From NCBI GenBank assembly GCA_963718565.1, contig OY970364.1:2112001-2176000 (forward strand): a stretch of 64,000 nucleotides of DNA, written 5' to 3'. A model generated the notes under the pieces. That model did no database searches and was not told the origin of the DNA. It saw only the letters and a program-made list of their open reading frames with translations. Shown here piece by piece: positions 2,366 through 43,677 of the stretch. This stretch comes from an uncultured Verrucomicrobiae bacterium. GTDB lineage: Bacteria; Chlamydiota; Chlamydiia; Chlamydiales; Rhabdochlamydiaceae. The translations under genes were made by a program, and so were the position numbers. Position 1 is the stretch's first letter. Each line of letters starts with the position of its first letter.

Positions 2366-2623
2366 GAGGGAATTGCAAAACTCCTTGCCGCATAAAATTG
2401 CGCTTTTGGCACCTGTCGCCTTGACGGCGGCTGCCTTCGGCCCCGGTTCGCTCTTCGCTCACCTGCATTGCTACTTACGAAGGTTCCCCGGACCTTCTTG
2501 TGTCTTCGCAGCCACTTATCCAAGTACGCTTTTGCCGCTGCCCACCGAACCCGCTGTGCGGGTTCTGGCAACAGGTGCCAAAATCATCGATTTTCTGCTG
2601 GCGAGGAGTTTTGCAATTCCCTC
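2366..2623. mobile_element. Family A miniature inverted-repeat element, longest copy (258 bp)
   Basis: TIRs GAGGGAATTGCAAAACTCCT/AGGAGTTTTGCAATTCCCTC, imperfect subterminal IRs, TSD TATC on both sides; just upstream of the rpsL RBS. Confidence 0.93.
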
Positions 2624-2798
2624 TATCATTCTTGATTTCGATTCTTTAAGAAAAAAAGAACCGACCAAAGTCTCTAAGATATTGGAGCACTATATCGTGA
2701 ATAGAGAATTTATTGCAAAACCAAAGCTTGCTGGGGTATAAACAAAAGTGTTAAAAAACTTTTTTAAAAATTACAGTTAGGATAAATACGAAATTAGG

Positions 2799-2820
2799 GA
2801 GGGAGTTTTGCAATTCCCTC
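2799..2820. mobile_element. Family A collapsed copy (22 bp)
   Basis: GAGGGAGTTTTGCAATTCCCTC flanked by TAGG/TAGG; 10 bp before the tsp ATG. Confidence 0.85.
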
Positions 2821-2830
2821 TAGGGTCCAT

Positions 2831-4837
2831 ATGCGAAGAAGAGGTCGTCGCTTCATGCTCATGGGAATTTTAAAATTTTTTATTTTGTATGTAGCAGCTT
2901 TTATCATCTTTGCATTTCAAAGTGGAACTTTTCAGCTTAAAAAAGAAGATGTTCGAAAGACGATGGAAGAAATGCTGGCCTACCACGTCGAATATAAAGA
3001 ATTTTCTCCACTGATTGCGAGACGGTCTCTAAAGATCTATATCGAACAGTTCGATCCTGACCGAGTCTATCTGCTTTCTAGTGAAGCCAAGCCCTATCTT
3101 GAACCTAAAGAGGACAGAATAAAATCCGTTGTCCAAAAGTATCGCCAAGATGATCTTTCCGAATATGCGAAATTGAACCGGATCATTCAGGATTCTATAG
3201 TGCGATCACGCGCTTATCGCGAAGAACTTGAAGAAGAGCTCATCGAGAGCAAGGAAGACCCCAAAATTATTGGAGGAACATATCTCGATTATGTCCGCAA
3301 TGAAAAAGAGTTGAAAGAACGGATAAGAAAGCAACTGATCCGTGTGCTTTGGATCGAGAAGCAGGTAGGCAATCTCCCCACATTGAATGCTCAGCAGCGC
3401 AAAAAGATTTTTGCGCTTTGGGAAAAGCGGTTTGCACGCATAGAAAACAGCTATCTGTCAAAAAATAAAAACGAGCACTACTTATGCATGCATGTTCTGA
3501 AAGCATTTTCCAAAAGCTTGGACGCTCATACTTCGTATTATAGCCCTGAAGAAGCATATGAGATGCGTACCAGTCTCGAAAAACAGTTTGAAGGGATCGG
3601 GGTCGTTTTGCGCGAAAGCATAGACGGTGTGGTCATTCACGATATGATCAAAGGAGGGCCTGCAGAACGTAGTGGAAAAATTTCTTCAGGGGATCTGCTT
3701 GTAGAAATCAACGGTCAGGCAATAGAAGGAGCTCCTTACGAAGAAGTGCTAAAACGTCTTCAAGGTGAAGGTAAGGAAAAAATTCAACTTGGACTCCGTC
3801 ATTCCGCTGGAGAAAGTAAATCGCAGGTATATAGGATTGATCTCAAGCGCGAAAAGATTGTCTTGCAAGATGATCGTGTTCACTATTCCTTCGAGCGCTA
3901 CGCTGACGGAATCATTGGAAAAATCAGCCTCCCTTCTTTTTATGAAAGCGTTGAGGGATCGAGCTGCGAAATGGAAATGCGCGACGCTTTAAGAGCCCTG
4001 AAAAGGCAGGGCAACCTCTTAGGCCTTGTTCTGGATATGAGGGAAAACTCAGGGGGCTTCTTAAATCAAGCTGTTAAAGTCGCTGGGCTGTTTGTGTCCA
4101 GCGGAGTGATCGTCATTTCCAAGTATGCGCATGGAGAAATGCAGTATTTGCGCGATCTCGATGGGCGCAGCTATTATAACGGCCCGCTAGTCATTTTAAC
4201 GTCTAAGGGCTCGGCCTCAGCAGCAGAGATTGTTGCGCAAGCCCTGCAAGATTATGGAACAGGCATCATTGTCGGGGATGAGCGAACTTATGGCAAGGGG
4301 ACAATTCAATATCAAACCGTCACAGATTCTGGGGCAACTTCTTTTTTTAAAGTCACCGTTGGCCGTTATTACACAGTTTCTGGGAGGTCCACGCAGATCG
4401 AAGGCGTGAAAGCAGACATTATCGTTCCCACTGCTTATTCTTTGCTGAATATTGGGGAAAGGTATTTAGAGTTTCCTTTGAAAAATGATCAAATTCCTTC
4501 GGCTTATAACGATCCGCTGATGGACGTCGATCCTCGCAATAAACCCTGGTTTCAGAAGAATTATTTGCCCAATCTTCAGAAGAAGCTCTCCGTGTGGACG
4601 CAAATGCTCCCACAGCTTCAGGGCAATAGCGCTTATCGCCTTAAGCAAAGTAAAGATTATGGGTTCTTCCTCAAAGTGCTCGAGCAAGACAAAGGCCAGT
4701 TGTCCTTCACCCCCACAGCGAAAGAAAATTGGGGGGCTGAAGATCTTCAAATGATGGAAGGCGTGAGTATTCTTAAAGACATGGCTATCCTTAAAACATC
4801 CTCCCTGCAAAAGACAGCTTTTGTTGGGTGCAACTAA
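2831..4837 (+). CDS. tsp: Tail-specific protease (S41A, PDZ)
   Basis: FEGIGVVL (PDZ), LDMRENSGG, SASAAEIV, TYGKGTIQ; next to rpsL as in Chlamydia. Confidence 0.93.
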   Translation: MRRRGRRFMLMGILKFFILYVAAFIIFAFQSGTFQLKKEDVRKTMEEMLAYHVEYKEFSPLIARRSLKIYIEQFDPDRVYLLSSEAKPYLEPKEDRIKSVVQKYRQDDLSEYAKLNRIIQDSIVRSRAYREELEEELIESKEDPKIIGGTYLDYVRNEKELKERIRKQLIRVLWIEKQVGNLPTLNAQQRKKIFALWEKRFARIENSYLSKNKNEHYLCMHVLKAFSKSLDAHTSYYSPEEAYEMRTSLEKQFEGIGVVLRESIDGVVIHDMIKGGPAERSGKISSGDLLVEINGQAIEGAPYEEVLKRLQGEGKEKIQLGLRHSAGESKSQVYRIDLKREKIVLQDDRVHYSFERYADGIIGKISLPSFYESVEGSSCEMEMRDALRALKRQGNLLGLVLDMRENSGGFLNQAVKVAGLFVSSGVIVISKYAHGEMQYLRDLDGRSYYNGPLVILTSKGSASAAEIVAQALQDYGTGIIVGDERTYGKGTIQYQTVTDSGATSFFKVTVGRYYTVSGRSTQIEGVKADIIVPTAYSLLNIGERYLEFPLKNDQIPSAYNDPLMDVDPRNKPWFQKNYLPNLQKKLSVWTQMLPQLQGNSAYRLKQSKDYGFFLKVLEQDKGQLSFTPTAKENWGAEDLQMMEGVSILKDMAILKTSSLQKTAFVGCN

Positions 4838-10993: not shown

Positions 10994-12294
10994 CAGGGCC
11001 ATTTAACTAAAATGTTTTGACATTTTCGAACAGAAAAATGTTGCCAAAATTCCCTTTAAGTACCCACCACCGAAAGTTGCTGCGCGCCTTACGGAGGCGA
11101 GCCCCCTTTCTGGATCTACAACTGCAGCCATGTTCATAGCCAAACGTCGAAACAACCCCATGTTCTCCGCACTATTCCCTCTATCCGTCAATGCATAATC
11201 CTCTTCAAAAATCACATCAGCTACCCAATGGCATTTGTTTTCTATGCTCCAGTGCTGTCGGGTCCATTTAGCAAAATCTTTGGCAGATGCTCGACGACTC
11301 GAAATATATAGCCGTCTAAATACCTCATTGGCAGTAGATCCAAGTTTTTGCCTCGTGGACCTTACTTCGATGAGACAGACTAAGTTTTTCCATTTGCCCG
11401 CATTTGGCAACCAGTCCAGGTCCTCGACGACTCGTACTTCTCGAATGTCGATTCGACCATGGCCTTTATCTACTTCCTGGTGAAACGAATGGGGGACTTC
11501 CTCCCATTCGACTGCGTGAGCTTGATCAAAAAAATTCTCCATTTCAGCGCACAGCGTTGGCTGGTTGTCCTTAACAGCCAGCAGATAATCTGCCTTCGCA
11601 TCAACGATTTGTTCTGCCGATTCGGCTACGGTGAAATGTGCATCTCCTGAAATAATCGCCCCCTCTACATTCACTTGCTCCAAAATGATTGGTAACGTGC
11701 TCTTTTCGACTGTTTTATTTGGGACCTTTTCCACGGCAAGACATAATCGATCCTCCGCTGCGAATAGCTCCACTACGTGTGTGACACCGCCTAGGAAATT
11801 TGCGCCTTTCATCCGTTTACCATCGATCGCCAATAGCTGATCGCGCAATGAAGCAGGAATTTTGCTGAACCATTTTTGCAAGTAGTGCTTGAGCGCACCA
11901 GGGGGTGTTTTCACTAAAAACCACCAGAGCGCTCCATGGGAAGGTGCTGAGAGCTCCTCACCTAGCAGAGAAGAAAACCACTCCTCCTGCAGAGAAACAT
12001 ATTCAGCGATTTCCTCAATCGTATTGCATCCACAAAAGAATCCGCAGAGAATAACAAGAGTCAAATACCAAACTGGATATAAGACACGTTTTTGATTACG
12101 TCGATAATCAGGGAAATCTGCAAACTCTCCCTTGACGGTTTCCGCGAATACACGGGCATCAAAATTCTTACTAGCTTCTAGGATTGTGGCGTCGATTGGC
12201 TTACGGCGTGACATAATAGGTCCTCCAAATTTGAGGAATTTATTATGCCATCTTAGCTGATCTGGTATCAAAAATTTTTAGTTAAATGGCCCTG
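10994..12294 (-). mobile_element. ISAs1-family insertion sequence, intact
   Basis: TIR CAGGGCCATTTAACTAAAA at both ends; 10-bp TSD AGTAAATTCA (10984..10993 and 12295..12304). Confidence 0.93.
11003..12214 (-). CDS. ISAs1-family transposase
   Basis: AIDGK, DYLLAVKDNQP, KGHGRIDIR, RQHWSIENKCHW motifs. Confidence 0.93.
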   Translation of the reverse strand: MSRRKPIDATILEASKNFDARVFAETVKGEFADFPDYRRNQKRVLYPVWYLTLVILCGFFCGCNTIEEIAEYVSLQEEWFSSLLGEELSAPSHGALWWFLVKTPPGALKHYLQKWFSKIPASLRDQLLAIDGKRMKGANFLGGVTHVVELFAAEDRLCLAVEKVPNKTVEKSTLPIILEQVNVEGAIISGDAHFTVAESAEQIVDAKADYLLAVKDNQPTLCAEMENFFDQAHAVEWEEVPHSFHQEVDKGHGRIDIREVRVVEDLDWLPNAGKWKNLVCLIEVRSTRQKLGSTANEVFRRLYISSRRASAKDFAKWTRQHWSIENKCHWVADVIFEEDYALTDRGNSAENMGLFRRLAMNMAAVVDPERGLASVRRAATFGGGYLKGILATFFCSKMSKHFS

Positions 12295-22415: not shown

Positions 22416-22470
22416 GAGGGAATTGCAAAACTCCTCACCGCATAAAATCGAGGGGTTTTGCAATTCCCTC
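22416..22470. mobile_element. Family A internally deleted copy (55 bp)
   Basis: Both TIRs present; TSD TAGA/TAGA. Confidence 0.9.
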
Positions 22471-37490: not shown

Positions 37491-38734
37491 TCATTGAATT
37501 GATTTCGATCGGCGACGAATTGCTCAAAGGAAATGTGGTTAACACCAATGCTGCTTTTTTATGCCGTCAATTCATGCTGGCAGGATATGCCGTCTCTTGT
37601 CAAATGACGTTGCCAGACGCGCGAGAATCTTTAGCAAAAGGACTTACGGGAGCGTTACAACGCGCGGATCTGGTGATTGGCACTGGTGGGCTCGGTCCCA
37701 CATGTGACGATCGGACACGTGAGGTTGCCGCAGAACTTTTTCATTCGGAGTTTCATTTTGATCAGGCATTAGCTGACGACATCAAACGGCGCTTTGGCAA
37801 TCGAAATGTATCTTTGGAAAATCAAGCGAGGATGCCTTCGAAGGCCAAGATTCTGCATAATCGCATAGGTACAGCGCCAGGTTTGCTTTTTTTTGAAGGA
37901 GGCAAAACTTTGGTCCTTCTGCCAGGTGTTCCAAAAGAAATGGAACCGATGTTCTTAGAACAAGTCTTACCCTGGGTGCAAAAACAGTGGCCATTAAAAG
38001 CCAAAAAAGAAAGCGTTCAACTGTTTTTTTGTCTGATTAACGAAAGTCTTCTGGATCCTCATCTGCGTGAACTCATGATGCATTATCCTTCTGTAGAGGT
38101 AGGCATTTATCCAGCACATGGAACGCTCACTGTTGCCTTGCAATCTTCTCACAAATCACAACTCCATTCCTTTCAGAAGGAATTGATATCGCGCTTTAGC
38201 AATTATTGTTACAGTTCGCCAAACGGTAAAATTGAAGAGGCGCTCCACCATTGGTTTGTCACACATCAAAAGACATTAGCTTTTGCAGAATCCTGTACAG
38301 GAGGAATGCTTTCCATGCATGTCACGTCACTGCCCGGTGCCTCGGAATATTTTTTAGGTTCTTTTGTCGTCTATTCCAACGCGATGAAGCAGCAGATATT
38401 GGGTGTGTCCAAAGAAACGCTTGACTCTCAAGGTGCTGTGAGTGAAGCGGCCGTTAAAGAAATGCTCGATGGCGTTTTTAACAAAACCTCGGCAGATTTT
38501 GCCATTGCTGTTTCAGGCATTGCAGGCCCATCGGGAGGAACAGAACAAACGCCTGTCGGCACTATCTGCGCTGCGATTGGAGAAAGGGAAAAAATTCCTG
38601 ATGTGGGAACATTTAACTCCTTTGGCAACCGCCACACCATTACATTATTAGCTACGCAATGGCTTCTAGGTGCGCTCTGGAGAAAGGTGGAGAAGAGAAT
38701 ACCCGCATTTCCATTGAGGGAATTGCAAAACTAA
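37487..38734 (+). CDS. cinA: CinA/PncC-family protein
   Basis: IGDELLKG...NTNA, GGLGPTCDDRT, AESCTGG, SGIAGPSGG. Confidence 0.92.
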   Translation: MIIELISIGDELLKGNVVNTNAAFLCRQFMLAGYAVSCQMTLPDARESLAKGLTGALQRADLVIGTGGLGPTCDDRTREVAAELFHSEFHFDQALADDIKRRFGNRNVSLENQARMPSKAKILHNRIGTAPGLLFFEGGKTLVLLPGVPKEMEPMFLEQVLPWVQKQWPLKAKKESVQLFFCLINESLLDPHLRELMMHYPSVEVGIYPAHGTLTVALQSSHKSQLHSFQKELISRFSNYCYSSPNGKIEEALHHWFVTHQKTLAFAESCTGGMLSMHVTSLPGASEYFLGSFVVYSNAMKQQILGVSKETLDSQGAVSEAAVKEMLDGVFNKTSADFAIAVSGIAGPSGGTEQTPVGTICAAIGEREKIPDVGTFNSFGNRHTITLLATQWLLGALWRKVEKRIPAFPLRELQN

Positions 38735-38842
38735 CAAAACGGGGTGATTTTCTGGGGGAAATTATTTAGCTAATCTGAAACAGGTTTTAGCAAATAAGAC
38801 CCCGAAAAAATGTCCTTTTCGCGTTAGTTTTGCAATTCCCTC
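38716..38842. mobile_element. Family A' element (127 bp)
   Basis: GAGGGAATTGCAAAACTAAC...GTTAGTTTTGCAATTCCCTC; TSD CATT/CATT. Confidence 0.92.
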
Positions 38843-39711: not shown

Positions 39712-40560
39712 ATGATGAAAGAAAAGTATTTACTTTTAGACAGCGGAAATCAACAAAAGTTGGAGCAGTTTGGCGCGTATATTATCGTACGTCCTTGTTC
39801 TCAAGCGCTCTGGACCCCCGCCCTTTCCCAAGCAGAATGGGATCTTGCACACGCTTCTTTTTCGCGAGACGGAGGGAATACTTGGAAATTCAAAAAAAAA
39901 CTTCCCGAAAGCTGGCTTGCCGAAATCGAGGGGATTCGTTTTAAAATATCTCCTACAGATTTTGGGCATCTCGGTGTTTTCCCAGAGCACAGTTTGCTTT
40001 GGAAATCGATGAAAGAAAGCATGAGCAGATGCACAAATTCTCCTCAAATCCTCAACCTTTTCGCCTATTCCGGAGGAGCGACGCTTGCAGCGGTAAAAGC
40101 CGGTGCGCGCGTCTGCCATCTCGATGCCTCTAAGGGGATGGTTGCTTGGGCAAGAGAAAATGCCGCTTATAATCAACTTTCATCGGCGCCTATCCGCTGG
40201 ATTGTGGATGATGCGGTGAAATTTTTAAAACGGGAGATCAAGCGCGGCGTTCGTTATGACGGAATTATTCTTGATCCACCGAGTTTTGGCCGTGGCAGCC
40301 AAGGCGAAGTTTTCAAAATGGAACGCGATATCGATGGGCTACTCCATCTGTGTAGAGAGTTGCTTTCTCCAAAACCTCTTTTTTTGCTGTTTACAACCCA
40401 TACTCCCGGAATGACTCCCCTTGTCATGCGCCATCTCATGCAACAGACAATGGGAAAAAATGTTGGCAGTATTGAAACTGGGGAAATGCTCCTGCTCTCT
40501 GCAACGGGGATCGATATTCCTAGCGGAAGTTTTGCGAGGTGGAGTGTGGAAAATGGGTGA
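39712..40560 (+). CDS. Class I SAM-dependent methyltransferase (RlmI/K-like)
   Basis: LNLFAYSGG, IILDPPSFG. Confidence 0.88.
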   Translation: MMKEKYLLLDSGNQQKLEQFGAYIIVRPCSQALWTPALSQAEWDLAHASFSRDGGNTWKFKKKLPESWLAEIEGIRFKISPTDFGHLGVFPEHSLLWKSMKESMSRCTNSPQILNLFAYSGGATLAAVKAGARVCHLDASKGMVAWARENAAYNQLSSAPIRWIVDDAVKFLKREIKRGVRYDGIILDPPSFGRGSQGEVFKMERDIDGLLHLCRELLSPKPLFLLFTTHTPGMTPLVMRHLMQQTMGKNVGSIETGEMLLLSATGIDIPSGSFARWSVENG

Positions 40561-41362
40561 AATGATTACGAGTATGCAAAATCCAAAAGTCAAAAAAACG
40601 ATCAAGCTGATCGAGCGCAAAGAGCGTAACACAACGGGACTTTTTCTGATTGAGGGATATCGCGAGATCAAGCGCGCTGCGGAGGCTTCAGTTGAACTCC
40701 AAACCCTATGGATTTGCCCTCCATTCTTTTTAGGAACAAATGAAAATACCTTGATCGATCAGGTCCGAAATCGGGGAGGAGAAATCATTGCCTGTAGCGA
40801 ACAGGTCTTTCAAAAACTCTCTTACCGTGACCGCCCAGACGGTCTACTTGCGATTGCAGTACAAATGCAGCGATCCTTGAAAGATTTTATTGCACATCTT
40901 GCGGCAAAAAAAGATCCTTTTGTCATCATTGCTGAAGCGATTGAAAAGCCAGGAAACCTGGGAACAATCTTGCGTTCCGCTGACGCAGCGGGTATCGATG
41001 GCGTGATCGTGTGCGACCGCTGTACAGACATCTATAATCCCAATGTCGTTCGCGCTAGCGTCGGGACGCTATTTACGATTCCTGTTGTGGAAGCATCGAC
41101 TGTAGAAACATTGTGCTGGCTTCAAAAACAAAAGATCACAATTGTTGCTGCTTCGCCTCAAGCGGAAAAAGAATTTACCCATGCCAATTTGGCAGGTGGC
41201 ATTGCCATTGCTGTAGGAACAGAGCAGCTCGGGCTGTCTGAAACTTGGATGCAAGCTGCCGATCTTAAAGTGCGAATTCCTATGCACGGAGTTGCGGATT
41301 CGCTCAACGTTGCCACGGCAACTACTCTTCTTTTATACGAGGCCGTAAGGCAGCGAAGATGA
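40553..41362 (+). CDS. TrmH/SpoU-family RNA methyltransferase
   Basis: EKPGNLGTILRSADA, GTEQLGL, IPMHGVADSLNVA. Confidence 0.92.
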   Translation: MGEMITSMQNPKVKKTIKLIERKERNTTGLFLIEGYREIKRAAEASVELQTLWICPPFFLGTNENTLIDQVRNRGGEIIACSEQVFQKLSYRDRPDGLLAIAVQMQRSLKDFIAHLAAKKDPFVIIAEAIEKPGNLGTILRSADAAGIDGVIVCDRCTDIYNPNVVRASVGTLFTIPVVEASTVETLCWLQKQKITIVAASPQAEKEFTHANLAGGIAIAVGTEQLGLSETWMQAADLKVRIPMHGVADSLNVATATTLLLYEAVRQRR

Positions 41363-42189
41363 AGATCATTTTCTGCGATAACCATATTCTCGTTGTCTCC
41401 AAGCCCGCCGGTATCAGTACCCAGCCCCATGAAGCAGATAGAGGGAATTGCAAAACTCCTCGCCAGCAGAAAATCGATGATTTTGGCACCTGTTGCCAGA
41501 ACCCGCACAGCGGGTTCGGTTGGCGGCGGCGAAAGCATACTTGGATAAGTAGGAGAGCCGCCGCCAAGGCGACAGGTGCCAAAAGCGCGATTTTATGCGG
41601 CGAGGAGTCTTGCAATTCCCTCGATAACTTGCTCGATCAAGCTAAGGCCTGGCTTAAGAAACAATTTCAAAAGAATGGCCATGTTTTCCTCGAACCCATC
41701 CACCGGTTAGACAAACCCGTGAGCGGTCTTGTGCTTTTCGCAAGGACAAGCAAAGCATTGTCGCGTCTTCAAGAGATGATGCGCCAGCGCAAGATCGAAA
41801 AAACTTATTTCGCTTGGATCGAAGGAGTATTGCCCCAAGAAGGCACATTGGAACATTATTTGGTTCACGATGAATATCGTGCACGAGTTGTCGATAGATC
41901 TCACCCAAAGGGGAAGCTTGCCCGTTTACGCTATTTTCAGATCGAAAAATCTCTTGTTGAAATTCACTTGGAAACAGGCCGCTATCATCAGATCCGTGCG
42001 CAATTTGCTTATATTGGCTGTCCTATTGTTGGCGATCAAAAGTATGGAAGTACCCTTCAGTGGAAAAAAAAGGAGGGAATTGCTCTGCACCATGGACGGT
42101 TGAAATTTTTGCATCCTGTCACAAAGTCAGACATCTGTTTTGAGTCTTTAGAACCTTCATCTTTCGGAATGGACCGGCCGATTTTTTAA
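41359..42189 (+). CDS. RluA-family pseudouridine synthase with a 62-codon in-frame element insertion
   Basis: SKPAG, HRLDKPVSG (catalytic Asp), TGRYHQIR, PIVGDQKYG. Confidence 0.93.
   Translation: MKIIFCDNHILVVSKPAGISTQPHEADRGNCKTPRQQKIDDFGTCCQNPHSGFGWRRRKHTWISRRAAAKATGAKSAILCGEESCNSLDNLLDQAKAWLKKQFQKNGHVFLEPIHRLDKPVSGLVLFARTSKALSRLQEMMRQRKIEKTYFAWIEGVLPQEGTLEHYLVHDEYRARVVDRSHPKGKLARLRYFQIEKSLVEIHLETGRYHQIRAQFAYIGCPIVGDQKYGSTLQWKKKEGIALHHGRLKFLHPVTKSDICFESLEPSSFGMDRPIF
41441..41622. mobile_element. Family A element (182 bp) inserted in frame
   Basis: Both TIRs present; TSD GATA/GATA; 182+4=186 bp. Confidence 0.95.
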
Positions 42190-43677
42190 CAATTTCCAGG
42201 CAATAACGATGCCGACAAGAGCAAGCAGTGCAGCACTTAAATTGATACTTAAGAAGGCATCGAGGAATGCATTTTTAGCGGATTGAAAAACATAGAGTGC
42301 GTCACCAGGCCGTAAACGGTCCATGTTGTGCATCGCTTTCGGAGATTTTGACAATAGCCCCTCAAACTCTTCAGGTGTCAATGACATTGTTGTTTCTTTT
42401 GCATGAAGAAATTGTCCCAATTTTTTAAAGGAGATCGAAGAATAAACAGTGCCGAATAGAGCAAGGCCGAGCGTTGAGCTGAATTGGCGCAATGCTGAAG
42501 TGATCCCAGAAGCAACACCTCTCTTTTCCGCAGAAACCTCGTTCATCATCCCTACGTAGCTAGGAGTAAAGATCATGCTCACGCCACATCCAAAGGTGAG
42601 CAGAGTAGGTAGAAGTAGCCAAATATTTTCCTGCTTCATAAACAGCGTAAACCAACTTAAAGAAAAGCAACCCAGTCCAAAACCAATCATGACGGGAATT
42701 CGCGGGCCGAATCGATCCACTAAAAAACCGCCTAGGGGCGCAGCAAATAACACGGGAAGGTTGGCCATAAACGCATAAACGCCCGCCTTTGAAGGGGAAA
42801 ATCCTAAAATATTTTGAAAATAGATCGCCCAAAAGACTGTGACCATGATGATCAGTTGATTGCAAAAAATACAACTGGAACTGGCGATAAATGACCTTGC
42901 TTTCATCAGCTCAAAGTCCAATATCGAAGCGTGAGGTTTATGTTTGCGTTTAAAAAGGATAGTGAGAGAGGAAATGCCGATCAGAAATAAGAGCAGGCAG
43001 CGCAGCGAATTCCAGCCCCATTGTTGGACTTGCATCAATCCAAAAACAAGGGAGATAATACCGATAGCAAGAATGAAAAAACCTCGAAAATCAAACGGTT
43101 CTTTTTTCCCTGTCGTCGCCGGGACGCTGAAAGAAGCCATGACTAATCCCAAAATCGCGATGGGAATATTGATCCAAAAAACATAGAGCCAACTTAAATA
43201 CGTAGTCAAGGCTCCGCCGATCAAGGGGCCCAGTGCGAGAAAAATAGACCCAATGCTGACAAATAATCCGAGAGCTTTTCCGCGTTGATTAGGAGGGAAA
43301 TGAGAGACGATGATTCCTTGTGTCGCTGGGAGTAGGAAAGCACCGCCAACCCCTTGGAGACCCCGGCTCATAATCAACCACCATTCCGCACGGCTCAGTC
43401 CGCACATTGCCGATGCAAGGGCGAACACGGCTATTCCTAAACAAAAGGCTTTTTTTAGCCCCCACATATCGCCAAGCTTACCTCCGGCCAAGACCAGAAC
43501 AGCTAAGACAAGTGTGTAAGCGTTAATCACCCATTGCAATCCGATGTCCGAAATCAACAGCTCCCGTTGCAATGTGGGCAAAACTACCGGCAGCACGGTG
43601 ATATCGACGAAGATCATTGAAATCGTCGTCGTCATCGCCGCTAAGATCCACCACTTTCGATTTTTTTCAGTGATCAT
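42157..43677 (-). CDS. MFS transporter, DHA2/EmrB-QacA type
   Basis: GKLGDMWG, RGLQGVGGA, GPLIGG; about 14 hydrophobic segments. Confidence 0.9.
   Translation of the reverse strand: MITEKNRKWWILAAMTTTISMIFVDITVLPVVLPTLQRELLISDIGLQWVINAYTLVLAVLVLAGGKLGDMWGLKKAFCLGIAVFALASAMCGLSRAEWWLIMSRGLQGVGGAFLLPATQGIIVSHFPPNQRGKALGLFVSIGSIFLALGPLIGGALTTYLSWLYVFWINIPIAILGLVMASFSVPATTGKKEPFDFRGFFILAIGIISLVFGLMQVQQWGWNSLRCLLLFLIGISSLTILFKRKHKPHASILDFELMKARSFIASSSCIFCNQLIIMVTVFWAIYFQNILGFSPSKAGVYAFMANLPVLFAAPLGGFLVDRFGPRIPVMIGFGLGCFSLSWFTLFMKQENIWLLLPTLLTFGCGVSMIFTPSYVGMMNEVSAEKRGVASGITSALRQFSSTLGLALFGTVYSSISFKKLGQFLHAKETTMSLTPEEFEGLLSKSPKAMHNMDRLRPGDALYVFQSAKNAFLDAFLSINLSAALLALVGIVIAWKLLKNRPVHSER

Follow-up and report, generated by a model that had tools for sequence, protein, structure and literature searches.

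An element inserted in an RluA-family gene

The window analyzed here, a 64,000-nucleotide stretch corresponding to bases 2112001–2176000 of a single 2.28-Mb contig (the genome is labelled G000), contains an open reading frame (ORF) for an RluA-family pseudouridine synthase, into which a 182-bp repetitive element has been inserted in frame. Coordinates of the main features are collected in Table 1. The insertion point lies at codon 27/28, between the protein flanks QPHEAD and NLLDQAK. The locus reads ...CAT GAA GCA GAT A / GAGGGAATTGC...GCAATTCCCTC / GATA ACT TGC..., and the element is bounded as GAT A / GAGGGAATTGCAAAACTCC...GGAGTCTTGCAATTCCCTC / GATA AC. Together with the duplicated GATA, the element adds 182 + 4 = 186 bp, or 62 codons, and the ORF stays open throughout. 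An earlier reading of this DNA (hereafter, the original prediction) had described 62 in-frame codons between motif I (KPAG) and motif II (HRLD) of an otherwise intact enzyme; the sequence and the ORF reading agree with this, and KPAG and HRLD are both intact despite the insert. Its interval, 41437–41626, takes in the element and the GATA on either side. The insert peptide, which ends in EESCNSLD, contains 5 Cys, 7 Arg, and 5 Lys residues and has a net charge of +7.

Being short, bordered by terminal inverted repeats, flanked by a 4-bp target duplication, and present in many dispersed copies, the element is a MITE, a miniature inverted-repeat transposable element. It carries no transposase gene: the frames across it hold only the host ORF and short antisense ORFs. 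A search for promoter-like or terminator-like sites inside the 182-bp element found none. As RNA, it is predicted to form a near-perfect hairpin of −128.2 kcal/mol, compared to −59.4 ± 4.5 kcal/mol for shuffled sequences (z = −15.5). The copy in the RluA-family gene differs at 1 base from the consensus of the 26 copies of its size class, while the synonymous divergence (dS) of the flanking gene from its closest ortholog is 1.35. The insertion is therefore very recent.

A match to the RluA-family protein was found in 31 of the 31 genomes searched (30 related genomes and G000). We aligned the G000 protein with the 19 best orthologs from the same genus or order (20 sequences in total). The columns of the insert are empty in 18 of the 19 orthologs; the closest of them, in genome G004 (83% identity), reads QPHQANE-DNLLDQS at the site. 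The ortholog alignment, which had been proposed as a check, bears out the insertion; the one exception, in genome G012, carries a different repeat (see below). The spacing between motifs I and II points the same way. It is 100 amino acids (aa) in G000, compared to 34 to 41 aa in 70 of 80 loci from the genome collection (96 aa in one, that of G012; two regular-expression artifacts; seven unparsed) and 34 to 44 aa in 64 of 80 metagenome loci (5 artifacts and 11 unparsed). The relatives in this wider scan were Candidatus Rhabdochlamydia, Rhabdochlamydiaceae, and other Chlamydiae metagenome-assembled genomes (MAGs). The three longest metagenome matches owe their length to terminal read-through and have no insert in the loop. 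Within the length range searched, a collection of 5.8 billion proteins contained the insert peptide in three proteins only, all from this genome.

The loop that received the insertion is variable among the aligned orthologs. In the G012 ortholog, the same loop contains 56 extra residues that derive from a different, 165-bp repeat with ends CACAGAGTGATTCAAAAGTT and TATA flanks. Five copies of this repeat, at 93 to 100% identity, are present in G012, and weaker relatives are found in both G012 and G000. With a 4-bp duplication, the G012 insert would amount to 165 + 4 = 169 bp, a length not divisible by 3, yet the frame is open; an additional 1-base change is thus implied.

The host protein belongs to the RluA family. 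PF00849 (PseudoU_synth_2) matches residues 9 to 217, spanning the insert, with 107.9 bits (cut-off, 26.8). The best profile match of the ortholog alignment is E. coli RluA (2i82), which it covers end to end with an E value of 2.3e-31, and HRLD is present in both. The chlamydial protein differs from E. coli RluA by its 62-aa insert and by NCBIfam scores that are below cut-off: 57.9 for the RluA equivalog model NF007543 (cut-off, 286), so that equivalence to E. coli RluA, with its specificity for tRNA position 32 and 23S position 746, is not established, and 143.8 for the rluA subfamily model TIGR00005 (cut-off, 192.7). Since both scores fall short, the protein is assigned to the RluA family as a whole and not to a particular substrate.

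An AlphaFold2 model built on the 20-sequence alignment has a mean predicted local distance difference test score (pLDDT) of 79.6 and a predicted template modeling (TM) score of 0.73. Structure modeling had also been proposed as a check on the insert, and its answer is twofold: the core is modeled confidently, with pLDDT values of 93 to 97 in ten-residue blocks outside the insert, and residues 36 to 86 are predicted to be disordered, with pLDDT below 50 and no secondary structure. The top Foldseek match of the model is again E. coli RluA 2i82 (E value, 1e-16; target-normalized TM score, 0.78), followed by RluD and RluC. In the RluA profile alignment, the insertion point coincides with a 2-residue gap in the loop after PGRLE and before helix α1. 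We take the RNA-contacting loops of RluA to follow the catalytic Asp, and hence to lie at a distance from the insertion site. PMC3753934 names the thumb and forefinger loops, together with the Arg of HRLD, as the RNA contacts of RluA and places this Arg two residues ahead of the catalytic Asp within HRLD at the active site.

The ATG of the RluA-family ORF overlaps the stop codon of an upstream ORF for a SpoU/TrmH-type methyltransferase, which resembles RlmB in NCBIfam with a score under the cut-off. With a further methyltransferase ORF, these two make up a cluster of three RNA-modification genes.

Size classes and reading frames of the element family

To describe the family, we scanned for its terminal repeat. 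In the 64-kb window, GAGGGAATTGCAAAACTCC has 16 matches at three or fewer mismatches, compared to 0.01 expected by chance. Genome-wide, 290 ends were found; they form 80 simple plus/minus pairs less than 700 bp apart, and 130 of the 290 remain unpaired. A flanking 4-bp duplication is perfect in 54 of the 80 pairs and has one mismatch in 17 more, while identity by chance is expected at 0.4% of sites. The duplicated targets are 83% A+T, compared to 56% for the genome.

The commonest size class is that of the element in the RluA-family gene, with 23 copies of 182 bp, one of 181 bp, and two of 183 bp (26 together, with 1 to 8 differences from the 182-bp consensus). The long form comprises 19 copies (8 of 257 bp, 7 of 258 bp, and 4 of 259 bp; one unrelated 262-bp pair was excluded), and shorter classes are seen at ~55, 71, 111 to 113, and 137 bp. 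A 76-bp internal stretch of the long form is missing from the 182-bp form. The same stretch is the main difference between the RluA copy and the 258-bp copy at 2366–2623, in line with the original prediction that the former is 76 bp shorter and lacks the segment with the stop codon.

Since 182 + 4 = 186, any 182-bp copy preserves the frame of its host, and three of the six orientation/phase combinations (A1, B1, and B2) of the 182-bp consensus are stop-free. These three are stop-free in the 257-bp consensus as well. Phase A1 is the one in which the RluA copy is read, and the ORF with 62 extra residues exists because a frame-neutral copy landed in one of the three stop-free phases. Among individual copies, phase A1 is open in 20 of 23 (182 bp), 5 of 8 (257 bp), 0 of 7 (258 bp), and 1 of 4 (259 bp). 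The 258-bp consensus, when read in the orientation and phase of the RluA copy, gives ...GEPS* and thus a stop, as had been claimed for the frame-shifting 258-bp copy of the window, whereas the 257-bp copy in an isochorismate synthase gene reads through phase A1 (GEPSQ). The 257-bp copies form a subfamily by descent that shares the change TCGTAAGTAGC → TCGCAG--TGC and one added G. Because of these changes, the 257-bp form has no stop, and 257 + 4 = 261 is divisible by 3.

These data do not support one element of the original prediction, namely, that a shortened derivative of a special kind came about, or was favored by selection, at the RluA-family gene. The copy found there is 1 base from the consensus, and phase A1 is open in nearly all 182-bp copies wherever they are located.

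Several minor forms were also observed. A 55-bp mini-copy is located at window positions 22416–22470, and a 127-bp copy at 38716–38842 belongs to a sister subfamily that ends ...AAAACTAA rather than ...AAAACTCC. Many solitary terminal repeats run into their own complement (GAGGGAATTGCAAAACTCCCTC) and form 22-bp mini-palindromes, for example at 2802–2820 (minus strand) of the window and at genome positions 1347750, 1567277, 1858648, and 2082255. These palindromes may represent elements of minimal size or footprints left by excision.

The best candidate for the source of the transposase is, judged from its sequence, a single intact 533-aa gene (G000:C1:1252460-1254058; locus L077, 1251529-1254523) with an IS66-type DDE domain (PF03050; E value, 6.8e-15). 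One of its flanks carries the family terminal sequence GAGGGAATTGCAAAACTAA... and the other a degenerate copy; a matching 4-bp duplication was not seen at these flanks. About 50 fragments of this gene are spread over the genome. Two other partners were ruled out. Elements of the ISAs1 family, present in at least 12 copies, end in CAGGGCCATTTAAC... and make 8- to 10-bp duplications. For an IS1380-like element, the PF13701 matches are below cut-off, and the element ends (AGAGTCAGTCCACAAACCT) are unrelated. One ISAs1-family copy lies inside another member of the MITE repeat family. Another of the ISAs1-family copies is found in the window at 11006–12268 on the minus strand (G000:C1:2123006-2124268). 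Ten transposase genes of this family are 100% identical over their full length, and the insertion sequence appears to be active.

In-frame copies in other genes

Open frames spanning each of the 80 pairs were listed, scanned with Pfam and NCBIfam, and compared to the five closest genomes. Five further genes were found to carry in-frame copies that most or all of their orthologs lack (Table 1). All in-gene copies verified against orthologs are 182 or 257 bp long, and their length plus 4 is divisible by 3; none of the 11 copies of 258 or 259 bp is in a verified gene. The copy in the SET-domain gene is still open despite 9 differences from its subfamily consensus. In the MORN-repeat lipoprotein, the signal peptide reads MRKIFWRRILQL before the insert and LTLLISLAVLSGC after it. 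At this site, the lipoprotein of G004 (L099, ~2690-3023) contains a diverged copy of 81.6% identity that is oriented the other way, and the ORF is open in both species.

Table 1. Positions of the insertion, its host gene, and related features. Plain numbers are window positions; strands and phases are given where assigned.
Feature	Position	Strand	Details
Further methyltransferase ORF	39712-40560		
SpoU/TrmH-type RNA 2'-O-methyltransferase ORF (longest reading)	40421..41362	+	Pfam PF00588, PF22435, PF10672
RluA-family pseudouridine synthase ORF	41359..42189	+	from ORF list; 276 aa with insert, 214 aa without
Motif I KPAG, residues 15-18	41401..41412	+	from sequence; K15, P16, G18 invariant in the 20-sequence alignment
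Target-site duplication GATA, left copy	41437-41440		from sequence
182-bp MITE copy	41441..41622	+	orientation A, phase 1; with duplicated GATA encodes residues 28-89
Left terminal inverted repeat GAGGGAATTGCAAAACTCC	41441..41459	+	19 nt, 0 mismatches
Right terminal inverted repeat	41604..41622	-	1 mismatch (EESCNSL here, EEFCNSL in consensus)
Target-site duplication GATA, right copy	41623-41626		from sequence
Motif II HRLD, catalytic Asp D118	41701..41712	+	from sequence; H115, R116, D118 invariant in the 20 sequences
258-bp intergenic copy	2366..2623	-	TATC flanks; opposite orientation to RluA copy; frame-shifting, stop-carrying subfamily
MutY (TIGR01084 above cut-off), 182-bp copy	G000:C1:1721238-1721419 (L067)		phase B1; splits NUDIX_4; absent from all 4 orthologs covering both sides
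Isochorismate synthase, 257-bp copy	G000:C1:556703-556959 (L059)		phase A1; absent from 5/5 orthologs
OppF-like ABC ATPase, 257-bp copy	G000:C1:790282-790538 (L062)		phase B1; after first strand; absent from 5/5 orthologs
SET-domain protein, 257-bp copy	G000:C1:590573-590829 (L060)		phase B1; after ~25 residues; absent from 4/4 orthologs
MORN-repeat lipoprotein, 182-bp copy	G000:C1:1797198-1797379 (L069)		phase A1; in signal peptide; absent from 4/5 orthologs
165-bp repeat in G012 RluA ortholog	L036:1985-2175	-	same record as L112

We also scanned the 80 pairs for ORFs that would be restored at the empty site. No convincing broken gene was found, and three weak flags were raised (genome positions 25637, 1347, and 1918446). 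The first is located just upstream of where a 324-aa ORF begins. The empty-site ORF at 1881167, which was not flagged as disrupted, is a shadow ORF that adjoins the start of a gene on the plus strand.

Other copies are located at or just upstream of gene starts, including those of an outer-membrane protein, a PBP4-type peptidase, and TsaB. The copy at the TsaB N terminus is 137 bp long (137 + 4 = 141, divisible by 3; G000:C1:1524109-1524245, L066) and is part of the publicly called protein P0003; a partial copy at the N terminus of a DUF1343 protein, near G000:C1:1910991, is part of the publicly called protein P0002. A 1224-aa collagen-like repeat ORF with a BclA C-terminal domain (PF01391 and PF18573; G000:C1:2058183-2061854, L072) has a 257-bp copy just upstream of where it probably starts. 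Copies read in phase B2 would encode a hydrophobic peptide and adjoin signal peptides of outer-membrane or periplasmic proteins (G000:C1:2027781-2027962, 1182912-1183168, and 1736469-1736650).

Fate of the insertion and comparison with known repeats

The best explanation of these results, and in our view a probable one, is a recent MITE insertion that is tolerated and persists in the protein as a basic loop, disordered and with Cys residues. As the sequence shows, a non-autonomous MITE transposed recently into GATA at codon 27/28, duplicating it; the insert would be placed in the variable surface loop between the strand of motif I and helix α1. It would then be translated and borne as such a loop, with the catalytic core still able to fold, and the insertion may have escaped purging because the core can fold with it. 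Across the genome, selection would remove gene-breaking insertions, so that only the 182- and 257-bp subfamilies persist within genes. The original prediction had gone further in two respects. Its statement that only a frame-compatible derivative was tolerated agrees with the lengths of the verified in-gene copies, but there is nothing special about the derivative at the RluA-family gene, 182 bp being the commonest length. Its second statement, that selfish DNA turned into a new loop of a housekeeping enzyme, is right as to selfish DNA inserted in frame; that the insert-bearing protein has a new loop is, from the sequence, plausible.

Several points weigh against tolerance. Given how recent the insertion is, even a gene that it had inactivated would still appear intact, and the intactness of the ORF therefore says little. 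An RNA hairpin of ~85 bp and −128 kcal/mol sits within the coding region, where it could hinder translation or serve as a target for a double-strand–specific RNase. Since the genome has two paralogous pseudouridine synthases, loss of the RluA-family gene might be survivable. The ratio of nonsynonymous to synonymous substitution rates (dN/dS) of the flanking gene, which had been proposed as a check, is low (0.057), but it predates the insertion: it mirrors the history of the gene before that event and is no evidence of present function. Likewise, the confidence of the AlphaFold2 model in the core is no measure of the cost of the insert. As for selection on length, the difference between 3 of 8 copies (257 bp) and 0 of 11 copies (258/259 bp) in genes is suggestive only (Fisher P ~ 0.06). 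In-gene copies were sought as open spanning ORFs, which makes the finding that all are open partly circular. The empty-site scan is insensitive near gene starts, and the flags at 1347 and 1918446, with 40 to 48 codons on each side, remain.

These points give some weight to the main alternative, that the gene has only just lost its function, or most of it, to the insertion, either because the hairpin stops translation or marks the mRNA for cleavage or because the loop spoils folding or RNA binding. The ORF would then be open only because the subfamily is frame-neutral and free of stops in half of its phases, with too little time elapsed for decay. The very recent date of the insertion relative to the dS of 1.35, the 50% chance that any one insertion meets an open phase, the stability of the hairpin (z = −15.5), and the two paralogs would all fit such an event. 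Nevertheless, we consider it less likely, because six independent copies are in frame and stop-free in conserved genes with no convincing broken gene among the 80 pairs. In addition, the same loop in G012 bears another repeat with the ORF still open, the SET-domain gene has stayed open while its copy accumulated differences, and the RluA-family gene is kept in every genome searched.

Misplacement of a repeat copy within the gene during assembly is very improbable. The repeat is multi-copy, and in four soil-metagenome runs the contigs that could be placed on 41000–42300 break at the element edges, neither junction being bridged and no joint being seen. Yet the boundaries are exact and coincide with a GATA duplication, as the perfect duplications do in 54 of the 80 pairs, and a chimeric join would create no target duplication. 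The frame continues precisely across the element, and the genome is a single contig. It is equally improbable that the segment is cut out of the transcript or of the protein in the manner of an intron or intein. The strong RNA structure is all that speaks for removal; no Rfam family matched at any E value up to 1 in 41000–42300, Pfam gives only PF00849 with no intein or endonuclease domain, and the terminal repeats, target duplication, and intergenic copies are the anatomy of a transposon. Finally, the reading that the segment is native to the enzyme family, for which the insert in the G012 loop could be cited, is already refuted at the sequence level: that insert belongs to a different repeat family with its own copies, no insert is present in 18 of the 19 aligned orthologs or in any other parsed locus, and the G000 segment is 1 base from the consensus of a 26-copy repeat.

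Palindromic repeats that colonize genes in frame are known chiefly from Rickettsia; the elements there are old, and how they move is obscure. The MITE review PMC10969869 describes these Rickettsia palindromic elements (RPEs) as short palindromic repeats located in frame inside many housekeeping genes of an obligate intracellular bacterium. The G000 family resembles them in size (~150 to 260 bp), in its in-frame location in unrelated genes, in a conserved stop-free peptide, and in predicted compatibility with the host fold; its stop-free copies occur in six unrelated genes and are mostly absent from the orthologs. By analogy, it would work like RPEs, in a new family and phylum. The likeness proposed here is one of behavior, and the host belongs to the Chlamydiota. 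Unlike RPEs, the G000 family has clear 19-nt terminal inverted repeats, a 4-bp duplication at most copies, and recently active subfamilies (1 to 9 bases from consensus), in which frame-neutral and frame-breaking lengths coexist.

The same review (PMC10969869) lists bacterial MITEs with intragenic copies fused to ORFs: ERIC, large BOX elements, QMITE1 of Coxiella, and MITEb/e of Anabaena. These are, like the G000 elements, non-autonomous, with terminal repeats, target duplications, and some in-frame fusions to host ORFs. The G000 family differs from them in two ways: just 34 copies of its two frame-neutral subfamilies account for 6 in-gene copies verified against orthologs, and different species were hit at the same sites, namely, the RluA loop (G000 and G012) and the signal peptide of the lipoprotein (G000 and G004). 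Our literature search found no paper describing such elements in Chlamydiota. In a genome paper on the Rhabdochlamydiaceae (PMC9723776), the discussion is confined to insertion sequences, and the main text contains neither "MITE" nor "palindromic"; "Chlamydia" is not mentioned in the MITE review cited above.

Two unrelated repeat families have entered the RluA loop, and insertions into the lipoprotein signal peptide occurred twice, in opposite orientations. We tentatively propose, with somewhat less than even confidence, that this Rhabdochlamydia-like genus hosts coding-neutral, still-jumping MITE lineages that recurrently, and independently in different species, colonize a few permissive housekeeping sites and are translated as basic, Cys-containing disordered loops. 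They would represent a second, independent, and active counterpart of RPEs. If so, the filter that leads from insertion to tolerated loop would be visible at the subfamily level (182/257 bp versus 258/259 bp), and the inserts would be a live source of new protein segments. For annotation, the case serves as a warning that odd long loops in proteins from chlamydial MAGs can be mobile DNA. Young elements with clear ends make it possible to test how selection sorts insertions, which loops tolerate 60 to 90 extra residues, and what effect an 85-bp hairpin has in an mRNA.

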